From a virus (Duplodnaviria; Caudoviricetes): DNA of 64,000 nucleotides. Shown here piece by piece: positions 8,124 to 56,155 of this stretch. The stretch lies in the IMG/VR virus record IMGVR_UViG_3300032285_001531, one strand, 5' to 3'. Within the stretch, counting starts at the first letter, position 1. Each line of letters begins with the position of its first letter. The notes beneath the pieces were generated by a model, which was not told the origin of the DNA, searched no databases, and saw only the letters and a program-made list of their open reading frames with translations. The position numbers and the translations under genes are program-made.

Positions 8124-10307
8124 ATGCCTATACAAGGACAAGCAAATATCAACATTGGAGCACAGAATTCAGTCGCAAATAGCGATTCATTATTCACGGC
8201 TTTTAATAAAATACAGAATAATTTCACTACACTTTTCACAACCGCAAGTAACTACAATACTTTTGTTGGAAATAATGGAATAGCTACTGAGTCAACTAGT
8301 TCAACCGGTACACTCAAAATCACAAATACTGGCGTTATTAATGTAATAGCGGGAACTGGTATTACAGTAAACAGTGCCAACGGAAACGTTATAATCAGTA
8401 TGTCAGGTGACGGGACTGGTAATTTAGTGGCAGGTGTTACCAATGTTGCATTAGTTACTAATACATTAGAAATTACAGGTAGTCCTATAGTAAGTGCTGG
8501 AATTATGACAGTTGATTTGCCATTACTTCCTGCATTAGTACCCGGTCAATATGCTACACCAGTAATGTCAGTAGATGAATATGGTCGTGTAACACAAATT
8601 GCAAATTCAAGTATTGCTGGTACTGTTACTTCAGTTGCAGTAAGTGGTGGCAATGGTATTTCTATAACAGGCAGTCCGATAACATCAAATGGTACAATAA
8701 CTGTAACTAATACAGGTGTGACTAGAATTAATCCAGGTCCCGGTATTGTAGTAACTGATAACACCGGTGAACTAACAATTTCTGCAAAATTATCAAGCGG
8801 CACAGTATCACAAGTTAGTGTGTCTAGTACCACATTAACTATTACAAACCCAACAATAACTACAGCAGGTACTATTACCATTGACTTACCTACTAATATA
8901 AGCATAGTTGGTAATATAACTAATTCTGGTAATACAATAACATACGGCAACATCACAGGTAACAGAAATGTGCAGATAACTGGGAATCTGACAGCTAATG
9001 GTAATATTTCTGTAGCAGGAAACTTAGTAGCATCAACTCCAGATAATATCAAGATTGGTGGAGGTACATCAAGTTATTTCTTACAAACAGACGGTGGCGG
9101 CAATCTAAGTTGGCAACCAGCTCCGGGTGCAGTTGGAACTACAACTGCTGCTGCAGGTAGTAACACACAAGTACAATTTAATAATGCAGGTGCAATTGGT
9201 GCTAATGCTGGCTTTACTTTTGATAAAGTTACAGGAGTTTTTACTGCTCCTAAACTATCAGGTAACGGTGCTAGTGTAACTGGAGTATTATCTGCTAATA
9301 ACGCAAACTTTGCCGGATCAGTTACTGGTGCTACCCAAAGCAATATCACAACTGTTGGTAACTTGGTTAACTTATCTGTAGTTGGAAACATTAGAGCAAA
9401 TGGTAACGTAGTTGCATTAGGTACTATATCATCAACTGGTGCTATGTATGCACTGACTCCTAGTAATTCAATAAGTAACACGACAGTTGCTACTACAGAA
9501 TTTGTAAACAATGTTATATTAACTAAAGCTCCATTAAATAGTCCAATCTTTACTGGAATTCCACAAGCTCCTGAAGTTGCAAATATAGCAAACGTTATAT
9601 TCCCAAGTTCACAAATTGCTACATTGAATTTCGTAAAAGATTTTAACGCTAATAAAGCTCCTTTAACAAGTCCGAGTTTTAATGGTATTCCACTAACACC
9701 TGATGTCACATTAGCAAATGCCGTTACTGCACCAGCCAATCAAATTTCTACAATTAATTTTGCAAGAAACTATGCTAACAGCGTAGCAAGTAACTCTAGC
9801 TTCCAAACTTCAGGTACATTAGGTAGTGCTAGATTACCTTCAGGAACAATATTACAAGTTCAGATGGCAGTAAGTGGTCCGGCAAGACAACAAATTAATA
9901 CCACTCTTAATGTTGCAGTATTAGGTCTTAAAATTAACTTTACACCGTTATCAGCTACTAGCAGAATTATCATAGATTGTGTTATTAGTGCAACTCCTAC
10001 TTATGTTCAGGGTTTTGGAGTATACAAAGACGGAGTTCCTACAGTTAATAATAATGTTGGTGGCATAGCTCCTTGGACTGCTGGTTTTCAGGTTACTAGT
10101 TTTATAGGTGTTAGTACTGCATCTGATTGGATAATGCAAGTTCCATTTAAACATACTGAAATATCAGGATCTATTGTACCTAGAATTTATGAAGTTTATG
10201 CCGGATCTCATTGGCTTGGAGTAGCATATGATATGTATATCAATAACAGAAAATCAAACGATATGGCCAGCTTCAGTTATATGACAATCTATGAAGTAGC
10301 AGTGTAA
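8124..10307 (+). CDS. Tail fibre / baseplate-anchored fibre protein
   Basis: N-terminal INIG..DSLFTAFNKIQNNF anchor; G/T/N/V-rich repeats; two KAPLxSPxFxGIP fibre repeats; C-terminal GTILQVQ tip-like domain. Confidence 0.75.
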   Translation: MPIQGQANINIGAQNSVANSDSLFTAFNKIQNNFTTLFTTASNYNTFVGNNGIATESTSSTGTLKITNTGVINVIAGTGITVNSANGNVIISMSGDGTGNLVAGVTNVALVTNTLEITGSPIVSAGIMTVDLPLLPALVPGQYATPVMSVDEYGRVTQIANSSIAGTVTSVAVSGGNGISITGSPITSNGTITVTNTGVTRINPGPGIVVTDNTGELTISAKLSSGTVSQVSVSSTTLTITNPTITTAGTITIDLPTNISIVGNITNSGNTITYGNITGNRNVQITGNLTANGNISVAGNLVASTPDNIKIGGGTSSYFLQTDGGGNLSWQPAPGAVGTTTAAAGSNTQVQFNNAGAIGANAGFTFDKVTGVFTAPKLSGNGASVTGVLSANNANFAGSVTGATQSNITTVGNLVNLSVVGNIRANGNVVALGTISSTGAMYALTPSNSISNTTVATTEFVNNVILTKAPLNSPIFTGIPQAPEVANIANVIFPSSQIATLNFVKDFNANKAPLTSPSFNGIPLTPDVTLANAVTAPANQISTINFARNYANSVASNSSFQTSGTLGSARLPSGTILQVQMAVSGPARQQINTTLNVAVLGLKINFTPLSATSRIIIDCVISATPTYVQGFGVYKDGVPTVNNNVGGIAPWTAGFQVTSFIGVSTASDWIMQVPFKHTEISGSIVPRIYEVYAGSHWLGVAYDMYINNRKSNDMASFSYMTIYEVAV

Positions 10308-10350: not shown

Positions 10351-13194
10351 ATGGCTATACCAACCCCACAACAGACAATTATCAGCACAGGGACTGACCC
10401 TGCGTTGGCCACATATGGAAACGCACTAAATTCTGCGGCATATGTTTCTAATGGAAATGTTACTTACAACATTACCCAGATAGAACAAACGGTCCAAAAT
10501 ACTACCCTAACTAACAATTTCAACAATACTGCCGGAGGATCCGGCGGACAAGTTCAATTCAACGTCAATGGTGTGTTGACCGGTGATGCTGGCTTCATCT
10601 ACAATCCTAATAATGACACAGTAGTTGTTTCAGGAAATGTACTTACTGGCTCAATCAGTGCAACTGCTAATATTACTAGTGCAGGAAATATAAGCGCAAA
10701 CATTGTCAATGCAGCTAATTTAAGAACCGATCATCTACAACATGCAAACGGTGACTCCTATGTTTTCACTGCTGTAACAGGCAACATCACTTTTGATGAA
10801 GAAAACATCATAAGCACTGGCAATATGTATCTACAGCCAAATGACGCTAGTGCAAGTGCAGTTGACATTTATCTAACTGGAAGTAATGATGTTCATATGG
10901 CAACTAGTGCATCAGGTGATATGCTTTATGTAGGTGGAGATAATCAATATGTACGTTTAAACTCAACTGGTAATGTTGACATTCAATCATATGATTCAGG
11001 CACAGATACAACAAATACATGGAACTTTAATAATAACGGTCAGTTAGTATTTCCATATGGCGGAATTATTGGTCCAGACGGTGGAGAGAGTTTAATAGTC
11101 AATGCTAAAGATGGTGTAGCAATGTATTCTAGTAACAGTTTAGTAAGCACTGGTGCATTAGATTTATCTGCAGTATTTACTAATACTAATAACAATGATT
11201 TACCTGGTGTTGAAATTTGGGCTAGAGCAAAAGGAAATGCTACTAGTACATGGACGTTCAGTAAAGACGGGATAATGGCTTTCCCAAATAATCGAATCAA
11301 TGTTGGTGCTGAAAGTATTGATATCGTAAGTAGCAACTATAGCGAATTATTATTTGAAAATAGTGATGCAGCAAATGCAGCAAATGGTGACGGTATTACT
11401 TCATACATATATATTGAAGGGAATCAAGCAGGTACCGGAATTGAAACAAAGAACGGAGAGAATTATTACTGGTATAATTACAGTGACGGAACTGCTGTTT
11501 TCCCTGCAGGAATTTCAATCGAAAACAACTACAAACAATATTTTAATGTTATAGTTAACACTAATACTGGTTCAGGCATCAATCTTCGAATTAATATTAA
11601 TGTTACTGCTGCAGGTGAAATGATTATTGTAGGCATAGCAAACGGTGGTAGCGGATATGTTGTCGGTGATAGTGTTTTTGTTTTAGGTACTGCAATTAAT
11701 GGTACAAATTTACTTAATGATGTATACATGACCGTTGCTGCAGTTAATGGAAGTGGTACAATTACAAGCACTGGTGGGTTAACAATTGATACAACATATA
11801 CTCATCCACTAGACGGTGTTAAGTTTGCAGGTGGAGGTGTAGTATCTGGTACTGATGCTAACGGTAATGTAACTATTCAAACTTTTGATAGTGAAGGCCC
11901 TACCAGTTACAATTATGCGTTTACTAATCAAGGCACATTAGAAGCTTATGATAATTTTTATATCAAAAGTCCAAGTTTTGTTGACATGCTTTGGTATAAT
12001 GATAATGTAGTTGGATCTAAAAAGGTAGGTGATTCTGACACTACTGGATTCCATGCTCAAGATAATACTGCTACAATATATGGTTCATTATACAATGCAG
12101 GAAGCACTGAATGGAATTTTTCAAATGATGGTACATTGTCAGCTCCTGGTTCAATTCATATGAACGGAGACGGTAGATATTTTCAAGTTAGCGTAACTAG
12201 TGATACTGGATCTGGTGCTAATCTTCAAGTATTGGTTTATGTTAATCTTGCGGGAACTGTTAGTATCTCATCTATTAGTAACGGTGGACAATATTACAAC
12301 GTCGGTGATGTATTATTCATAGACGGTAGTTTAATTGGTGGCCATGAAATAGCTAATCAAATTAATATTGAAGTTATCGGAACAGGTACCGGTGGTGTTA
12401 TTGAAGGTACAGGTCAATTGACAATCACAAGCGGTATTGGTCCTAGATCAGGAGTAGAATTCAATAATTTTGCTGCAGTTCAAACTGATGACAATGCTAA
12501 CGGTAATTTAGTTTTCCAATCATTTAATACAAATACAGAAGAATTTTACTATTCAACATTTGATAATACAGGTAATCTATCTGTTCCAGGTGAAATTCAT
12601 TTAATAAATGACAATGCACACGGTGGTGCAGGTTATGCAGGAATGATAACATTTGAAAATACAACCAGTGGTGCGACCAACACTAAGAAATTTGTACGCA
12701 TGAATAGTACTGGTAATCTTGAAATTATCAATAATGGATACTCTACAACTTTATTATCATTATCTGATAGCGGTAACTTGAGCATTTATGGTAATGCTAA
12801 TGTAGGTAATTTAGGTACTACTACTGCTATTATCACTACAGGTAACATCACTACTGTTAATACTGGCTTAGTTCAGAATGGAAACTCAAACGTAACTATT
12901 ACTGCTAACGCAAATATTACACTAACTGCTACAAGCAATGCTACAATGGTTATCACTGGTACAGGTGCTAACGTAACTGGTTACGCTAATATATCAGGTA
13001 ATGTCAGTGCAGGTAATGTTTCAGGGGCAATTACTCTCGCTACACTAGCATTAAAAATGCCAGTATATGCAGATGCTACTGCTAGAGATGCAGCTATTAC
13101 TTCTCCGACTGCAGGTATGATAATTTATAATACTGGTTCAGGAAATGTGCAAGTTTATAGTGGTTCTGCTTGGGGTAATATAACTGTATCATAA
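10351..13194 (+). CDS. Long tail fibre / adhesin-like structural protein
   Basis: 947 aa G/N/T-rich; GQVQFN motif; internal module duplicated with a 213-aa period. Confidence 0.7.
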   Translation: MAIPTPQQTIISTGTDPALATYGNALNSAAYVSNGNVTYNITQIEQTVQNTTLTNNFNNTAGGSGGQVQFNVNGVLTGDAGFIYNPNNDTVVVSGNVLTGSISATANITSAGNISANIVNAANLRTDHLQHANGDSYVFTAVTGNITFDEENIISTGNMYLQPNDASASAVDIYLTGSNDVHMATSASGDMLYVGGDNQYVRLNSTGNVDIQSYDSGTDTTNTWNFNNNGQLVFPYGGIIGPDGGESLIVNAKDGVAMYSSNSLVSTGALDLSAVFTNTNNNDLPGVEIWARAKGNATSTWTFSKDGIMAFPNNRINVGAESIDIVSSNYSELLFENSDAANAANGDGITSYIYIEGNQAGTGIETKNGENYYWYNYSDGTAVFPAGISIENNYKQYFNVIVNTNTGSGINLRININVTAAGEMIIVGIANGGSGYVVGDSVFVLGTAINGTNLLNDVYMTVAAVNGSGTITSTGGLTIDTTYTHPLDGVKFAGGGVVSGTDANGNVTIQTFDSEGPTSYNYAFTNQGTLEAYDNFYIKSPSFVDMLWYNDNVVGSKKVGDSDTTGFHAQDNTATIYGSLYNAGSTEWNFSNDGTLSAPGSIHMNGDGRYFQVSVTSDTGSGANLQVLVYVNLAGTVSISSISNGGQYYNVGDVLFIDGSLIGGHEIANQINIEVIGTGTGGVIEGTGQLTITSGIGPRSGVEFNNFAAVQTDDNANGNLVFQSFNTNTEEFYYSTFDNTGNLSVPGEIHLINDNAHGGAGYAGMITFENTTSGATNTKKFVRMNSTGNLEIINNGYSTTLLSLSDSGNLSIYGNANVGNLGTTTAIITTGNITTVNTGLVQNGNSNVTITANANITLTATSNATMVITGTGANVTGYANISGNVSAGNVSGAITLATLALKMPVYADATARDAAITSPTAGMIIYNTGSGNVQVYSGSAWGNITVS

Positions 13195-24488: not shown

Positions 24489-24562
24489 TGGTGCCCCTTG
24501 ACAGAATCGAACTGCCAATTGATGATTACAAATCAACTGTTATACCATTTAACTAAAAGGGC
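24489..24562 (-). tRNA. tRNA-Thr(TGT)
   Basis: Loop TTTGTAA, CCA. Confidence 0.9.
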
Positions 24563-26695: not shown

Positions 26696-28588
26696 TTAAT
26701 TTGCTTCTTTTACTTCGGCATCAACAACTGTTTCATCAGTTGGAGGACCATCTGGCATTTCTTTGTTGCGCTTCTCAGCTTCCCAAGCAATAGTTTTCTG
26801 CATCAACTCACCAATTTCTTTAACTGCTGCGTCCATGTCATCTTTACTATCGCCCTTTGCCGTCTCTTTATATTTACTTAGAGATTCAGTGATGGCTGTT
26901 TTTTCCTCAGCAGGAACATAATCACCTAAATTCTCAATTTGAGATTCAAGATGACCAATGCTACTATCTAAACTATTACGTGCACCAACAAGTTCAACAA
27001 TTTTCTTATCTTCTTCAGCATTCAATTCAGCATCTTTGACCATTTGATCAATCTCTTGCTCTGATAAGCCACTGTTTGCTTTGATTGTGATTTCTTTTTC
27101 TTTGTTGGTTTTCTTATCAACTGCTTTAACTGATAAGATACCATTCGCATCAATGTCAAATGTAACTTCAATTTGTGGTACTCCGCGTGGTGCTGGATCG
27201 ATACCTTCTAAATTGAATTCACCTAAACGTTTGTTACCACTTACAATCTCACGTTCACCTTGATAAACACTGATAGTAACTGATGGCTGATTGTTTTCTG
27301 CAGTAGAATAAACTTGACTGTACTTTGTAGGTATAGTTGTGTTCTTCTTAATCATCTTAGTCATAACACCACCCATTGTTTCAATGCCTAATGATAATGG
27401 AGTTACATCTAATAACAATACGTCTTTACGATCACCACCTAATACTGCACCTTGAATTGCTGCACCAACTGCAACGGCTTCATCAGGATTAACATCTTTA
27501 CGTGGAGCCTTACCGAATAGCTTCTCAACTTCTTCTTGCACCTTAGGCATACGTGTCATACCACCAACAAGAATAATCTCATCAATGTCACTTGCAGTAA
27601 CGCCTGCATCTTTCATTGCAACTTTACATGGCTCAATACTACGCTGAATTAAATCTTCTACTAATGATTCTAACTTAGCACGTGTGATCTTAACATTCAA
27701 ATGCTTAGGACCAGTTGCATCTGCAGTGATGTATGGTAAGTTAACATCAGTTTGTGTACTGTTAGATAGTTCAATCTTTGTACGTTCTGCTGCCTCTTTC
27801 AAACGTTGTAGTGCCATCATGTCTTTACTTAAATCAACACCTGAATCTTTTTTGAACTCAGCAATGATGTGATCCATTATTCTTTGGTCAAAATCTTCAC
27901 CGCCCAAGAATGTGTCACCGTTTGTGGAAAGTACTTCGAATTGTTTATCGCCATCCACATTATTGATGTCAATGATAGATATATCAAAAGTACCGCCACC
28001 AAGATCATAGACAGCAACTTTGCGGTCTGTTTTTTCATTCTTATCTACTCCATATGCCAATGCTGCTGCAGTTGGCTCATTAATAATACGCAATACTTCT
28101 AAGCCTGCAATTCTACCTGCATCCTTAGTTGCTTGACGTTGACTGTCATTAAAGTACGCTGGTACTGTAATAACTGCTTGTGTAACTTCTTCACCTAAGA
28201 AATCTTCTGCTGTCTTTTTCATCTTACGTAAAACTTCAGCACTTATTTGAGGTGGTGCATACTTCTTATCTTCTACTTGTACCCATGCATCACCGTTATC
28301 TGCTGCAACGATTTTATATGGAATCAAGTCAATATCTTTCTGTACTGCTTTCTCATCAAACTTACGTCCGATTAGTCGCTTAGCAGCATAGATTGTATTT
28401 TTTGGATTAGTTACAGCTTGACGTTTTGCTGGTGCACCAACAGTGATTTCACCGTTTTGCATATACGCAATAATACTAGGTGTAGTTCTTGCACCTTCGC
28501 TGTTCTCTAATACTTTTGGGGTTTTGCCATCTATGATAGCAACGCATGAATTGGTAGTACCTAGGTCGATACCTATAATCTTAGACAT
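26696..28588 (-). CDS. dnaK: Chaperone DnaK (Hsp70)
   Basis: [30 protein letters not shown]; full length; AAGGAG RBS. Confidence 0.98.
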
Positions 28589-28692
28589 ATTTTTCTCCTT
28601 TAAATTAAGCAAGATTTTTTATCAGAAGCCCGTAAGGCGCATCTGAGACATGTATTTATACATGGGAAAATGTAAAATATCAATATATTTGG

Positions 28693-28768
28693 TGGTGCCC
28701 ATTGACGGATTCGAACCGCCGACCTACTGATTACTAATCAGTTGCTCTACCAACTGAGCTAAATGGGC
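28693..28768 (-). tRNA. tRNA-Thr(AGT), A34 anticodon
   Basis: Canonical 76-nt cloverleaf, GCCCATT/AATGGGC acceptor, loop TTAGTAA, CCA. Confidence 0.9.
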
Positions 28769-29373
28769 TACTTTTTCTTATAAATCTTTACGTCAATCTT
28801 TCCGCTGAAAGGAATAGATTTGACTAATGCAAAGTGCTTCTCTACTTCTTTAAAAACATTAAAATCATCATTGAACCAGATGACACTATTATCTGACCTA
28901 ACATCACCGGGAACTAATCTACCTTCAGCTTCGTTAAGCAATATAAAGTATCCATCTTTACGCATAGCATCAGCTATAGTTTCTATCTCTTTTACTGGGT
29001 GTTCTACATGCTGCAAAACGTATGCAGCTAAGCAAACATCAATTACTCCCTTACGGATGAATGAACTGCAGGTAACAAATTTATTAGAATCAGCAACATA
29101 CATTGTGGCCAACTTTAGCATGTCAATACTCATGTCTAACCCAATAACTTCACATTTGAATCTCTCAATCAATTGTTTGCTTACACGACCCATTCCGCAT
29201 CCAAAATCAAGTACAACTTTTTGATCAGATATGATATTTTCGTTAGCAATTATATTGACTAATTGATTGGTCTCATCCTCAAATTTATTAGGATTTGCAG
29301 GATCCGGGGTCAATACAATGTCTTTTGCATGTTGCATAGAAGCCGGAATAAATGTTTCGTATAAGTATTTCAT
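28768..29373 (-). CDS. Class I SAM-dependent methyltransferase
   Basis: VLDFGCGMGR motif I, GLDMS, YVLQH. Confidence 0.85.
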   Translation of the reverse strand: MKYLYETFIPASMQHAKDIVLTPDPANPNKFEDETNQLVNIIANENIISDQKVVLDFGCGMGRVSKQLIERFKCEVIGLDMSIDMLKLATMYVADSNKFVTCSSFIRKGVIDVCLAAYVLQHVEHPVKEIETIADAMRKDGYFILLNEAEGRLVPGDVRSDNSVIWFNDDFNVFKEVEKHFALVKSIPFSGKIDVKIYKKK

Positions 29374-32999: not shown

Positions 33000-33560
33000 C
33001 TATGATAATAAGATTCTACTGTGCTTAGGAACGCCAGACATTAAGTAATCCATTTGGTCTGCTAAGATATTACGATTCTGTAATATCATATTTTCGAAAT
33101 GATTTGGTTCGTATGGAACATATAACAACTCCATACTGCTTTCTTTTAATGTCATATCATCTTTCTTGCCGTTACATGGTCTACATGCAGTAACTACATT
33201 TGTCCATGCATTCAGTCCACCTCTGCTCTTTGGAACAATGTGATCTCTACTCAAGTTATGATGATTGTGAAAATGATCACCGCAATATGCACAAACATTC
33301 CTATCACGACCGAACAATGTTTTGTTAGTCAGTGCAACTTTGCCATGCTTGCTTATGTCAAATCCATGTCCATTGATTGCGATAATGCTAGGAGTCTCAA
33401 TATAGCTTTGTTGTCCGTTATTTTGAATTCCACCTCTGAACTTAGCAACTATTTCACCTAATGACCAAGCAACCATACCTTTTGCGTGATAAGTGATTGC
33501 AGTTTCATTGGAAATCCATTGTCTAGGAATTCCTGAAATATCTAATGCTAAAACAGACAT
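33000..33560 (-). CDS. HNH endonuclease
   Basis: RDRNVCAYC, DHIVPKSRGG, NVVTACRPCNGKK. Confidence 0.9.
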   Translation of the reverse strand: MSVLALDISGIPRQWISNETAITYHAKGMVAWSLGEIVAKFRGGIQNNGQQSYIETPSIIAINGHGFDISKHGKVALTNKTLFGRDRNVCAYCGDHFHNHHNLSRDHIVPKSRGGLNAWTNVVTACRPCNGKKDDMTLKESSMELLYVPYEPNHFENMILQNRNILADQMDYLMSGVPKHSRILLS

Positions 33561-54139: not shown

Positions 54140-56155
54140 TTATAAATTGTCCCAGCAATCGCAATAACAGGCGATAACATTTTGTAATGCTTCCGGTGGT
54201 GTTACGGTTGATGGTTTTATTGCGGTAGATATATTAAAAATATCTAAATTTTGAGGGATGAGATTTGTTTCAGGTGATCCCGCAAAGCTGCCTGGTGTCT
54301 GTGCCGCGCCAGTTACTTTTGGAATTCCCAACCCATTACCGGATGTCACAGGTAATTGGTTACTTATATTGTTATCCAATTCTAGTCCTGCTAATCCTAA
54401 CCTTTGTGCGTTTCTAATTTCTCTCAGTAACGCTATTAATGCTTGTCCTCCTATGGTTGATGTATTGGCTATAGCTTCCAAAACCTGCACAGACTGCAAA
54501 GGTTCCGTATCTACAGCATACCCATTCATACTATCTACAAATGAGTATATCGTTTGAGTGCCTGATGTGGCACTACTTGACAATGCGGCTGCTCTGATAG
54601 TACTTTCTTTTGTTAAAGCAGTACCAACTGCTGTCCACAGTGTATTCAATTCTGTAGCTGCTGCAGTGTTAGCATTATATATTGCTAAAATTTCTGCATT
54701 AGCTTGTGCTATATATGTAGTCATAGCTGAGTTGTGGTTACTTGAAGTACCCATTTCAGTATACATGTTATCATATATTGTGGTTAATGTACTTGATTGT
54801 AATTGAGTGATTAACTGTTGTATTCTAGCTAAATTATATCCTACTCCTGACATAGCACCAAAGAAGTCTGCCATTGTGTAAGTACCATAAGGTCCTCCAC
54901 CTAGTGCAATTGCGTTATATGCGGTAGTTGTTGCTGCATTGTTAACCGGAGTAGATGTTCCATTAACAGTTAAGCCAACAGTAACTTCTAAATTAGTTAC
55001 TACTTGACTAAATTTTTGTATCTCTACATTTTGTATATTTTTTATCTGTAGCATTGCAATACTAAATGCACCGCAAGCAATTGCTACATCATCTGGTAAA
55101 ATTTGTGTTAAATTACTACCAAATCCAAATGTACTTAATTGCATATTTACAGTGCCATTAACATATATCGGATAATAGATTTTACTATTAGTAGATGACA
55201 TAGTTGTGTTATATCTAACAGTTGTTAGACTGTCATAACTATTAGGAAATAATTGTACTGGATTTAATAAATCAGCGAGACTAACTAGGCCAGCTGTTTG
55301 TGTGTTCAAGCAAGTGCATACATCTTTTAAATCATTATTCACTACTACAGTAAATGCACCGTATATTTTTCTTTCTTGGTCAATAGTAGGTGTTATTGTT
55401 AAATTTAGTATACCAGTTATTTCAGTTGTACTAAGTCCAGAATAGATTAATGCAATATTTACTGGTTCAGTTAACGCATTATTTGCTTTTAATGTTCTTA
55501 GTAGATTACTAGGAAAACCAAAATCTTTAATTGTTGCTAGATTAATCGCTCTGCCTGATTTAATTAAATCTTGCCCCCAATACACAGTAGATTGATTTAC
55601 TCCTGTGATGTCGGCAGTTATTAAATCATTCATGTTACTATATACACCTGCTAGATAATTATTAGCATTATATAAACTTGCGATTACTGAATTGTTTGCA
55701 GATTTGTATCCTGATGCAGTTAAGAAGCTACTGCAAAAATCACTATATGACCCAGTACCAAATACAAATTCATTATATGCTTGTAGCGCAATTGTACGCA
55801 AGAAGCCATAACGTGATAATGAATTTGTGTATGACACTGTATATGTACTAGCTGGACTATTACCCAATGCAGGAATAGAACTTGATCCTATTGATATTAA
55901 ACTTGTGTAAACAGCCTGACTGATGCTTGATCCAGACACAGCATCAATAACAGGATATGCTAATGCAGTTGCTTGTGACAGTTTATTTAATACTGTACCG
56001 CTAACCAATGTGCCAGCAGTGTAATTTGATTCAGCCGTACTTGAGCCAATGTAACCCGCAGTAGTTGAATTTATATTCAACCCTGTTGATTGCATTAGAC
56101 TTGCTAATAAATTAATGCTATTTGGAGACTGTTTACCTTGAAGGCTCATGGACAA
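54140..56155 (-). CDS. Large Ala/Ser/Thr-rich structural (baseplate/tail) protein
   Basis: Composition; overlaps the PAAR gene. Confidence 0.5.
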   Translation of the reverse strand: MSMSLQGKQSPNSINLLASLMQSTGLNINSTTAGYIGSSTAESNYTAGTLVSGTVLNKLSQATALAYPVIDAVSGSSISQAVYTSLISIGSSSIPALGNSPASTYTVSYTNSLSRYGFLRTIALQAYNEFVFGTGSYSDFCSSFLTASGYKSANNSVIASLYNANNYLAGVYSNMNDLITADITGVNQSTVYWGQDLIKSGRAINLATIKDFGFPSNLLRTLKANNALTEPVNIALIYSGLSTTEITGILNLTITPTIDQERKIYGAFTVVVNNDLKDVCTCLNTQTAGLVSLADLLNPVQLFPNSYDSLTTVRYNTTMSSTNSKIYYPIYVNGTVNMQLSTFGFGSNLTQILPDDVAIACGAFSIAMLQIKNIQNVEIQKFSQVVTNLEVTVGLTVNGTSTPVNNAATTTAYNAIALGGGPYGTYTMADFFGAMSGVGYNLARIQQLITQLQSSTLTTIYDNMYTEMGTSSNHNSAMTTYIAQANAEILAIYNANTAAATELNTLWTAVGTALTKESTIRAAALSSSATSGTQTIYSFVDSMNGYAVDTEPLQSVQVLEAIANTSTIGGQALIALLREIRNAQRLGLAGLELDNNISNQLPVTSGNGLGIPKVTGAAQTPGSFAGSPETNLIPQNLDIFNISTAIKPSTVTPPEALQNVIACYCDCWDNL

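Follow-up and report, generated by a model that had tools for sequence, protein, structure and literature searches.

The segment at positions 28693-28768 on the minus strand of the window, the whole 64,000-nt stretch of viral DNA analysed here, is an intact and genuine tRNA-Thr gene with an AGU anticodon. Its wobble adenosine (A34) is probably left unmodified, so that the tRNA would act as a decoder specialised for ACU, a reading to which we assign a probability of roughly 60%. According to textbooks and reviews, anticodons that start with A are near-forbidden in bacteria beyond Arg(ACG), and one review extends this to phages (PMC8007984). Large environmental phages nevertheless routinely keep tRNA-Thr(AGU), about as frequently as Thr(GGU), while its anticodon arm hardly ever turns up in a set of 185,579 bacterial and archaeal species genomes. 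The gene in the window is a well-founded case of this, one among others, and these phage genes constitute a natural and abundant test case for decoding by an unmodified wobble adenosine in ordinary Gram-negative cells, as well as for the question of why A34 is tolerated for Thr and only rarely for other codon boxes.

Identity and structure of the tRNA

The window has a GC content of about 35% and encodes Hsp70/DnaK, ribonucleotide reductase, radical SAM enzymes, an HNH endonuclease, an endolysin-like protein and fibre-like ORFs; no close relative of it was found among GenBank phages. ARAGORN places 16 tRNA genes in it, all on the minus strand, with Thr(agt) and Thr(tgt) among them. The AGU gene is 76 nt long with its CCA encoded and has the cloverleaf and the conserved D and T loops of the Rfam tRNA family RF00005, against which it scores highest of the 16 (75.1 bits, E 2.3e-15, full model; gathering threshold 29 bits). 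The minimum-energy fold is likewise a cloverleaf (-27.8 kcal/mol, z -3.7). The acceptor stem starts with G1-C72, C2-G71 and C3-G70 and is followed by the discriminator A73; the D arm is standard and the T stem contains a G50-U64 wobble pair. The anticodon loop is U32 U33 A34 G35 U36 A37 A38, with the anticodon read from the sequence at 28733-28735 on the minus strand (A34 at 28735, G35 at 28734 and U36 at 28733), so that A34 appears as a T at position 28735 of the plus strand. A preliminary description of this DNA had reported a canonical 76-nt tRNA of Thr identity with the loop TTAGTAA, and ARAGORN, Rfam, the fold and the sequence all bear it out; the strand, unstated at that time, is the minus strand.

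The identity elements recognised by ThrRS in E. coli are G1-C72, C2-G71, G35 and U36, and position 34 is not among them. The gene carries this entire bacterial tRNA-Thr identity set together with a short variable loop and, since position 34 lies outside of it, the charging of an A34 tRNA should be unaffected.

A second Thr tRNA with a UGU anticodon had also been claimed for the window, and ARAGORN locates it at 24489-24562 on the minus strand. This partner, the presumed reader of ACA and ACG, has a backbone unrelated to that of the AGU gene and, by comparison, is orthologous to the Thr(UGU) of a related viral locus (L279). Its anticodon stem contains a U28-U42 mismatch that is kept in the L279 orthologue, and the same GTTGA/TCATC arm is combined with A34 in a further viral contig family (L193, L208, L209 and others).

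Conservation and origin of A34

The same 76 nt, A34 included, recur among other neighbouring genes in an independent metagenome contig (L363), and the only change in L146, the A34 copy closest to that of the window, is the compensatory replacement of U6-A67 by C6-G67; together these make a sequencing or assembly error very unlikely. The exact A34 arm is present in 39 IMG/VR contigs, with 23 distinct sequences besides that of the window. In the alignment of these 24 sequences 99.4% of the cells are paired, and compensatory changes are seen at 11 acceptor-stem and T-stem pairs; no variation occurs in the D and anticodon arms, mostly because of how the search was built. All 24 sequences share C2-G71, A73 and CCA, and G1-C72 is found in 23 of them, that of the window included. 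Judged from these sequences, A34 is heritable and constrained in this tRNA family.

With regard to its origin, a 27-nt anticodon-arm pattern (positions 22-48) in which position 34 was left free was searched in IMG/VR. Among the first 120 contigs listed, the shared arm has U34 in 107, C34 in 8, A34 in 5 and G34 in none, and this dominance of U34 together with the lack of G34 points to a UGU-type backbone. The A34 copies are nearest to one another (1-3 differences) and U34 copies lie 4-10 differences off, with the exception of the window's own group, where a U34 copy (L121) is found at 1-5 differences. Furthermore, three anticodon-stem families include A34 and U34 members alike, which suggests repeated switching at position 34. 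An orthologous change from G34 to A34 was ruled out, given the UGU type of the arm (no G34 among these first 120 contigs) and the unrelated backbone of the Thr(GGU) that occupies the corresponding slot in L279.

An assembly error was discarded as an explanation, since A34 is conserved across a family of sequences and the same gene was recovered independently. The wider alternative, in which the A is either such an error or a recent neutral mutation in a decaying UGU copy, can invoke a U34 allele that is only two bases away (position 34 and one D-loop base; L121, L362 and L364) and the absence of the gene from this locus in the closest relatives. It is nonetheless barely credible in view of the copy in an independent assembly, the 23 further A34 backbones with compensatory evolution, the perfect cloverleaf, the presence of CCA and the best Rfam score of the window.

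Genomic context

Downstream of tRNA-Thr(AGU) lies the phage dnaK gene (Hsp70; 26696-28612, minus strand; Pfam HSP70, E 6e-257), and upstream of it an ORF of 201 aa with generic profile matches to class I SAM methyltransferases (28768-29373, minus strand). The methyltransferase ORF ends in a TAG stop codon (28768-28770, minus strand) whose final G doubles as G1 of the tRNA, and processing of a co-transcript by RNase P would as a result strip the mRNA of a complete stop codon. A role of the methyltransferase as a dedicated tRNA modifier was rejected, as its matches are only to generic class I SAM enzymes and it was found in none of 155 loci, including all 39 contigs with the A34 arm.

The dnaK gene served as the anchor for syntenic relatives, for which 412 viral relatives of DnaK were available. 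In the loci L279-L288, whose DnaK is 81-84% identical, the tRNA genes around dnaK follow one another as in the window. The slot just upstream of dnaK is variable, so that tRNA genes behave here as exchangeable cassettes; it is mostly occupied by Met(CAU) in L280-L288, and in the window by Thr(AGU) as the only tRNA. L279 presents the order homologous methyltransferase, Phe, Thr(GGU), Met(CAU) and dnaK (tRNA slot at L279:5763-5914), and the window the order methyltransferase, Thr(AGU) and dnaK. The comparison of relatives for GGT or AGT at this locus, proposed in the preliminary description, has returned one Thr(GGU) with an unrelated backbone and Met(CAU) in most other cases. Since the GGU and AGU backbones are unrelated, the AGU gene is a cassette that was swapped in out of the phage tRNA pool and not a mutated orthologue, and it is the functional analogue of the L279 Thr(GGU). 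Moreover, the closest relatives found do not have the gene at this locus, which indicates that tRNA-Thr(AGU) is dispensable for that lineage.

The HNH endonuclease of the window (33000-33560, minus strand) has homologues with 66-86% amino acid identity (in L279, L286, L288, L363, L131, L142 and L151) that adjoin Arg(UCU), Thr(AGU), Asn(GUU) and Ile(UAU) tRNAs. This pattern is consistent with homing endonucleases that shuffle tRNA arrays; a specific link between the HNH endonuclease and Thr(AGU) was ruled out, as the homologues adjoin several different tRNAs.

Occurrence in phages and bacteria

A looser IMG/VR pattern, composed of the D arm, any anticodon stem, a YTAGTAA loop and the variable region, matches at least 120 contigs, with 36 different anticodon stems among those listed, and 95 distinct Thr(AGU) sequences were gathered altogether. 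A few of the contigs listed for this pattern are giant-virus MAGs. The relative frequency of the AGU type can be read from two samples that were not selected on Thr. The Thr genes in 116 loci anchored on tRNA-Asn comprise 31 UGU, 3 AGU, 1 GGU and 1 CGU, and among 80 loci anchored on dnaK there is Thr(GGU) in 3 and Thr(AGU) in none. From these counts, AGU is a minority Thr type whose frequency in phage arrays is roughly that of GGU.

Across 185,579 bacterial and archaeal species genomes, the 23-nt A34 arm has 11 matches, most of which come from MAGs of low-GC Firmicutes and of low-GC proteobacteria that are either gammaproteobacterial or unclassified. Among them, L160 (JAURFW010000053.1), assigned to a Bacteroidota MAG, is a 5.9-kb phage-type tRNA array whose Thr(AGU) is identical to that of the viral contigs L127 and L152, and it is probably a misbinned phage fragment. 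The statement in the preliminary description that A34 tRNAs are rare in bacteria finds support in this count and agrees with published work (PMC8007984, PMC11066159). In uncultured phages, A34 tRNA-Thr is not rare. Phage tRNAs have been said in a review to lack the ANN anticodons that are missing from bacteria (PMC8007984), a claim that the present data contradict for uncultured phages.

With regard to cultured phages, a megablast search of GenBank phages with four A34 tRNAs and one 2-kb stretch of the window as queries found nothing similar, and two of the matches from a sensitive search, in Aeromonas phage LAh10 and Vibrio phage K470, proved to have UGU; these searches were by similarity and not by pattern, and do not imply that Thr(AGU) is absent from cultured phages. 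No description of a phage Thr(AGU) was found in the literature, and annotated records may list such genes without comment.

Other unusual anticodons were observed in the viral arrays. A34 tRNAs with good class-appropriate structure occur there now and then as Ser(ACU) (L016, L017, L034, L042, L047 and L103), Ser(AGA) (L175, L193 and L207) and Leu(AAG) (L176, L185 and L263), and there is a Gly(ACC) in L094. The first 155 loci contain 19 calls of tRNA-Ile(UAU), another type that bacteria seldom have. Several arrays that bear Thr(AGU) (L070, L136 and L144) include tRNAs with a CUA anticodon, of the amber-suppressor type and labelled Pyl by ARAGORN, and a UUA 'stop' tRNA and a UCA tRNA are found among the loci L001-L155 from the Thr-arm scans.

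Codon usage

Codons were counted in 79 non-overlapping ORFs that make up 85% of the window. The 1161 Thr codons are divided into 515 ACT (44%), 497 ACA (43%), 105 ACC (9%) and 44 ACG (4%). The AGU and UGU pair supplies decoders for the 87% that are ACT or ACA, and the Thr codon use of the window is thus supported as an exact fit to this pair. Among the loci retrieved, ACT is about 6 points higher where Thr(AGU) is present, when GC is equal, a difference that ignores kinship among the loci.

Three large ORFs are particularly rich in Thr (11.5-13.2%, against 6.4% overall): a fibre-like ORF at 8124-10307 on the plus strand (13.2% Thr, 44 ACT), which has a weak PHROG tail-fibre match and would draw heavily on the tRNA, and the ORFs at 10351-13194 on the plus strand (11.5%, 59 ACT) and at 54140-56155 on the minus strand (11.5%, 33 ACT). 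The 136 ACT codons in these fibre-like ORFs represent 26% of all ACT in the window, a proportion that follows only from the length and Thr richness of the ORFs, since their ACT share of Thr (43-54%) is approximately the genome average. The codon counts confirm the earlier remark that Thr-rich fibre genes use many ACT and ACA codons. Regarding the suggestion that the tRNA is codon-matched for fibre translation, the codon match stands and the specificity for fibres does not, as the match is genome-wide. Furthermore, other U-ending codons are as frequent in their boxes (GGT 50%, CCT 46% and GTT 39%) and yet are served by no A34 tRNA in the phage; the choice of Thr in particular cannot therefore be explained by codon supply on its own.

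Decoding by A34

The efficiency of A34 has been measured in E. coli, where an AGU tRNA without inosine reads ACU at 10.7% and ACC at 1.4%, an approximately 8-fold difference, with ACA and ACG below detection (PMC11066159). In the same study, the most efficient A34 decoders were those with AGN anticodons (Ser, Pro and Thr), while the Val, Ala and Gly versions decoded poorly, and this may help to explain why phages retain A34 for Thr.

In the proposed mechanism, the host ThrRS would charge the phage tRNA-Thr through G35, U36, G1-C72 and C2-G71, ignoring position 34. A34 would stay unmodified and form a Watson-Crick pair with ACU and a weak one with ACC, beside the phage tRNA-Thr(UGU), which would read ACA and ACG. 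The combined supply would relieve the synthesis of late, Thr-rich structural proteins, which the presumed host pool (an ACC-preferring GGU tRNA, UGU and CGU) would limit; the specificity of the host TadA and the host tRNA pool enter this reading as assumptions. The gene itself would come from a mobile pool of tRNA cassettes common to large freshwater phages, where it would have originated by a change at position 34 of a UGU-type backbone before taking the slot between the methyltransferase and dnaK, which harbours an unrelated tRNA-Thr(GGU) in a close relative.

The most direct competitor is the conversion of A34 to inosine, either by a relaxed host TadA or by an unrecognised phage enzyme, which would yield a reader of ACU, ACC and ACA like the eukaryotic tRNA-Thr(IGU). 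Arg(ACG), which depends on the host TadA, accompanies Thr(AGU) in many arrays, CDA-fold deaminases are encoded in three of five large phage records that bear AGU, and some bacterial TadA enzymes are described as editing Leu(AAG) too (PMC8266599, PMC11066159). However, the UUAGUAA loop departs from the TadA substrate loop (C32 U33 A34 C35 G36 R37 A38) at positions 32, 35 and 36, whereas the phage Arg(ACG) loops are CUACGAA or CUACGGA in 44 of 46 distinct genes. The E. coli TadA is highly specific for the ACG loop and leaves the AGU tRNA unedited, and Oenococcus oeni edits only two of its four A34 tRNAs (PMC11066159). Nor do the phage genes point to an editing enzyme: the deaminases of the three AGU-bearing records best match dCMP/ComEB models and reach 26.8 bits with the TadA model against a cut-off of 150, and a motif search found no CDA-type or TadA-like gene in the ORFs of at least 60 aa of the window, which represents 64 kb of a much larger genome. 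A phage-encoded TadA was discarded on these grounds, and inosine at position 34 appears unlikely overall. A similarly doubtful alternative is that unmodified A34 would act as a broad 'superwobble' reader of ACU, ACC and ACG and hence as a general Thr supplement. The tRNA-Thr(AGU) of Mycoplasma is cited as reading these three codons in vitro (Inagaki 1995, as cited in PMC11066159), and strict ACU specificity is for this reason not guaranteed, but the measurements in E. coli argue against such breadth, which would also add little in a phage where ACC and ACG make up only 13% of the Thr codons.

It is also conceivable, by analogy, that A34 would hide the tRNA from a host nuclease or from phage-induced decay that recognises the anticodon loop, or would free the reading of ACU from the host enzymes that modify U34 or G34. 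The tRNAs of phage T5 with altered anticodon loops reportedly escape tRNA-targeting defences, and the repeated appearance of A34 on UGU backbones would reflect selection on that base. Yet the remaining loop and the stem are identical to those of ordinary UGU copies, with position 34 as the only difference, and the same data find a simpler explanation in the codon match; this alternative is improbable. A bolder proposal combines elements of the above: the A34 Thr tRNAs would be a phage-specific adaptation that arose through repeated U34-to-A34 changes on at least three backbones, became about as common as GGU, and was kept because it resists some host activity directed at the tRNA-Thr anticodon loop or through unrecognised editing, and not for codon supply alone. 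It seems to us a long shot, and the ACU-specialised decoder with an unmodified A34 is the reading retained here.

Comparison with known systems

A34 tRNA-Thr is already known from Mollicutes and Leuconostocaceae (PMC8007984, PMC11066159). In Mollicutes such as Mycoplasma capricolum, a bacterial-type A34 tRNA-Thr is cited as occurring beside Thr(UGU) (Andachi 1987; Inagaki 1995, as cited in PMC11066159), in an AT-rich genome with abundant ACU and ACA and no Thr(GGU) seen. Within its 64 kb, the window has the same combination of A34, a UGU partner, no GGU and ACU-rich coding, a resemblance in gene content and codon use. The phage gene differs in that it belongs to a mobile array and would supplement a complete host set, whereas in Mollicutes it is part of a minimal tRNA set. 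The same AGU anticodon is cited for Leuconostocaceae, including Oenococcus, and for other low-GC Firmicutes (PMC8007984; Rafels-Ybern 2019, as cited), bacteria that are normal in other respects, and among the matches of the A34 arm in species genomes there are MAGs of Lachnospiraceae, Erysipelotrichaceae and Bacillota. In contrast to the phage copies, the Firmicutes genes stand singly in the chromosome in place of GGU, have no encoded CCA and differ in their acceptor and T arms.

Arg(ACG), the only common bacterial A34 tRNA, depends on TadA and is frequent in the same phage arrays. Its loop is CUACGRA, as opposed to UUAGUAA in Thr(AGU), which does not have the recognition bases C35 and G36 of the former. 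Finally, the arrays of T4, T5 and KVP40 resemble that of the window in that AT-rich phages carry tRNAs for A- or U-ending codons, and the T4 tRNA-Thr(UGU) is 87.5% identical over 72 nt to the tRNA-Thr(AGU) described here. The difference lies in the anticodon, which is UGU in the Thr tRNAs of the cultured phages LAh10 and K470 and AGU in the window.
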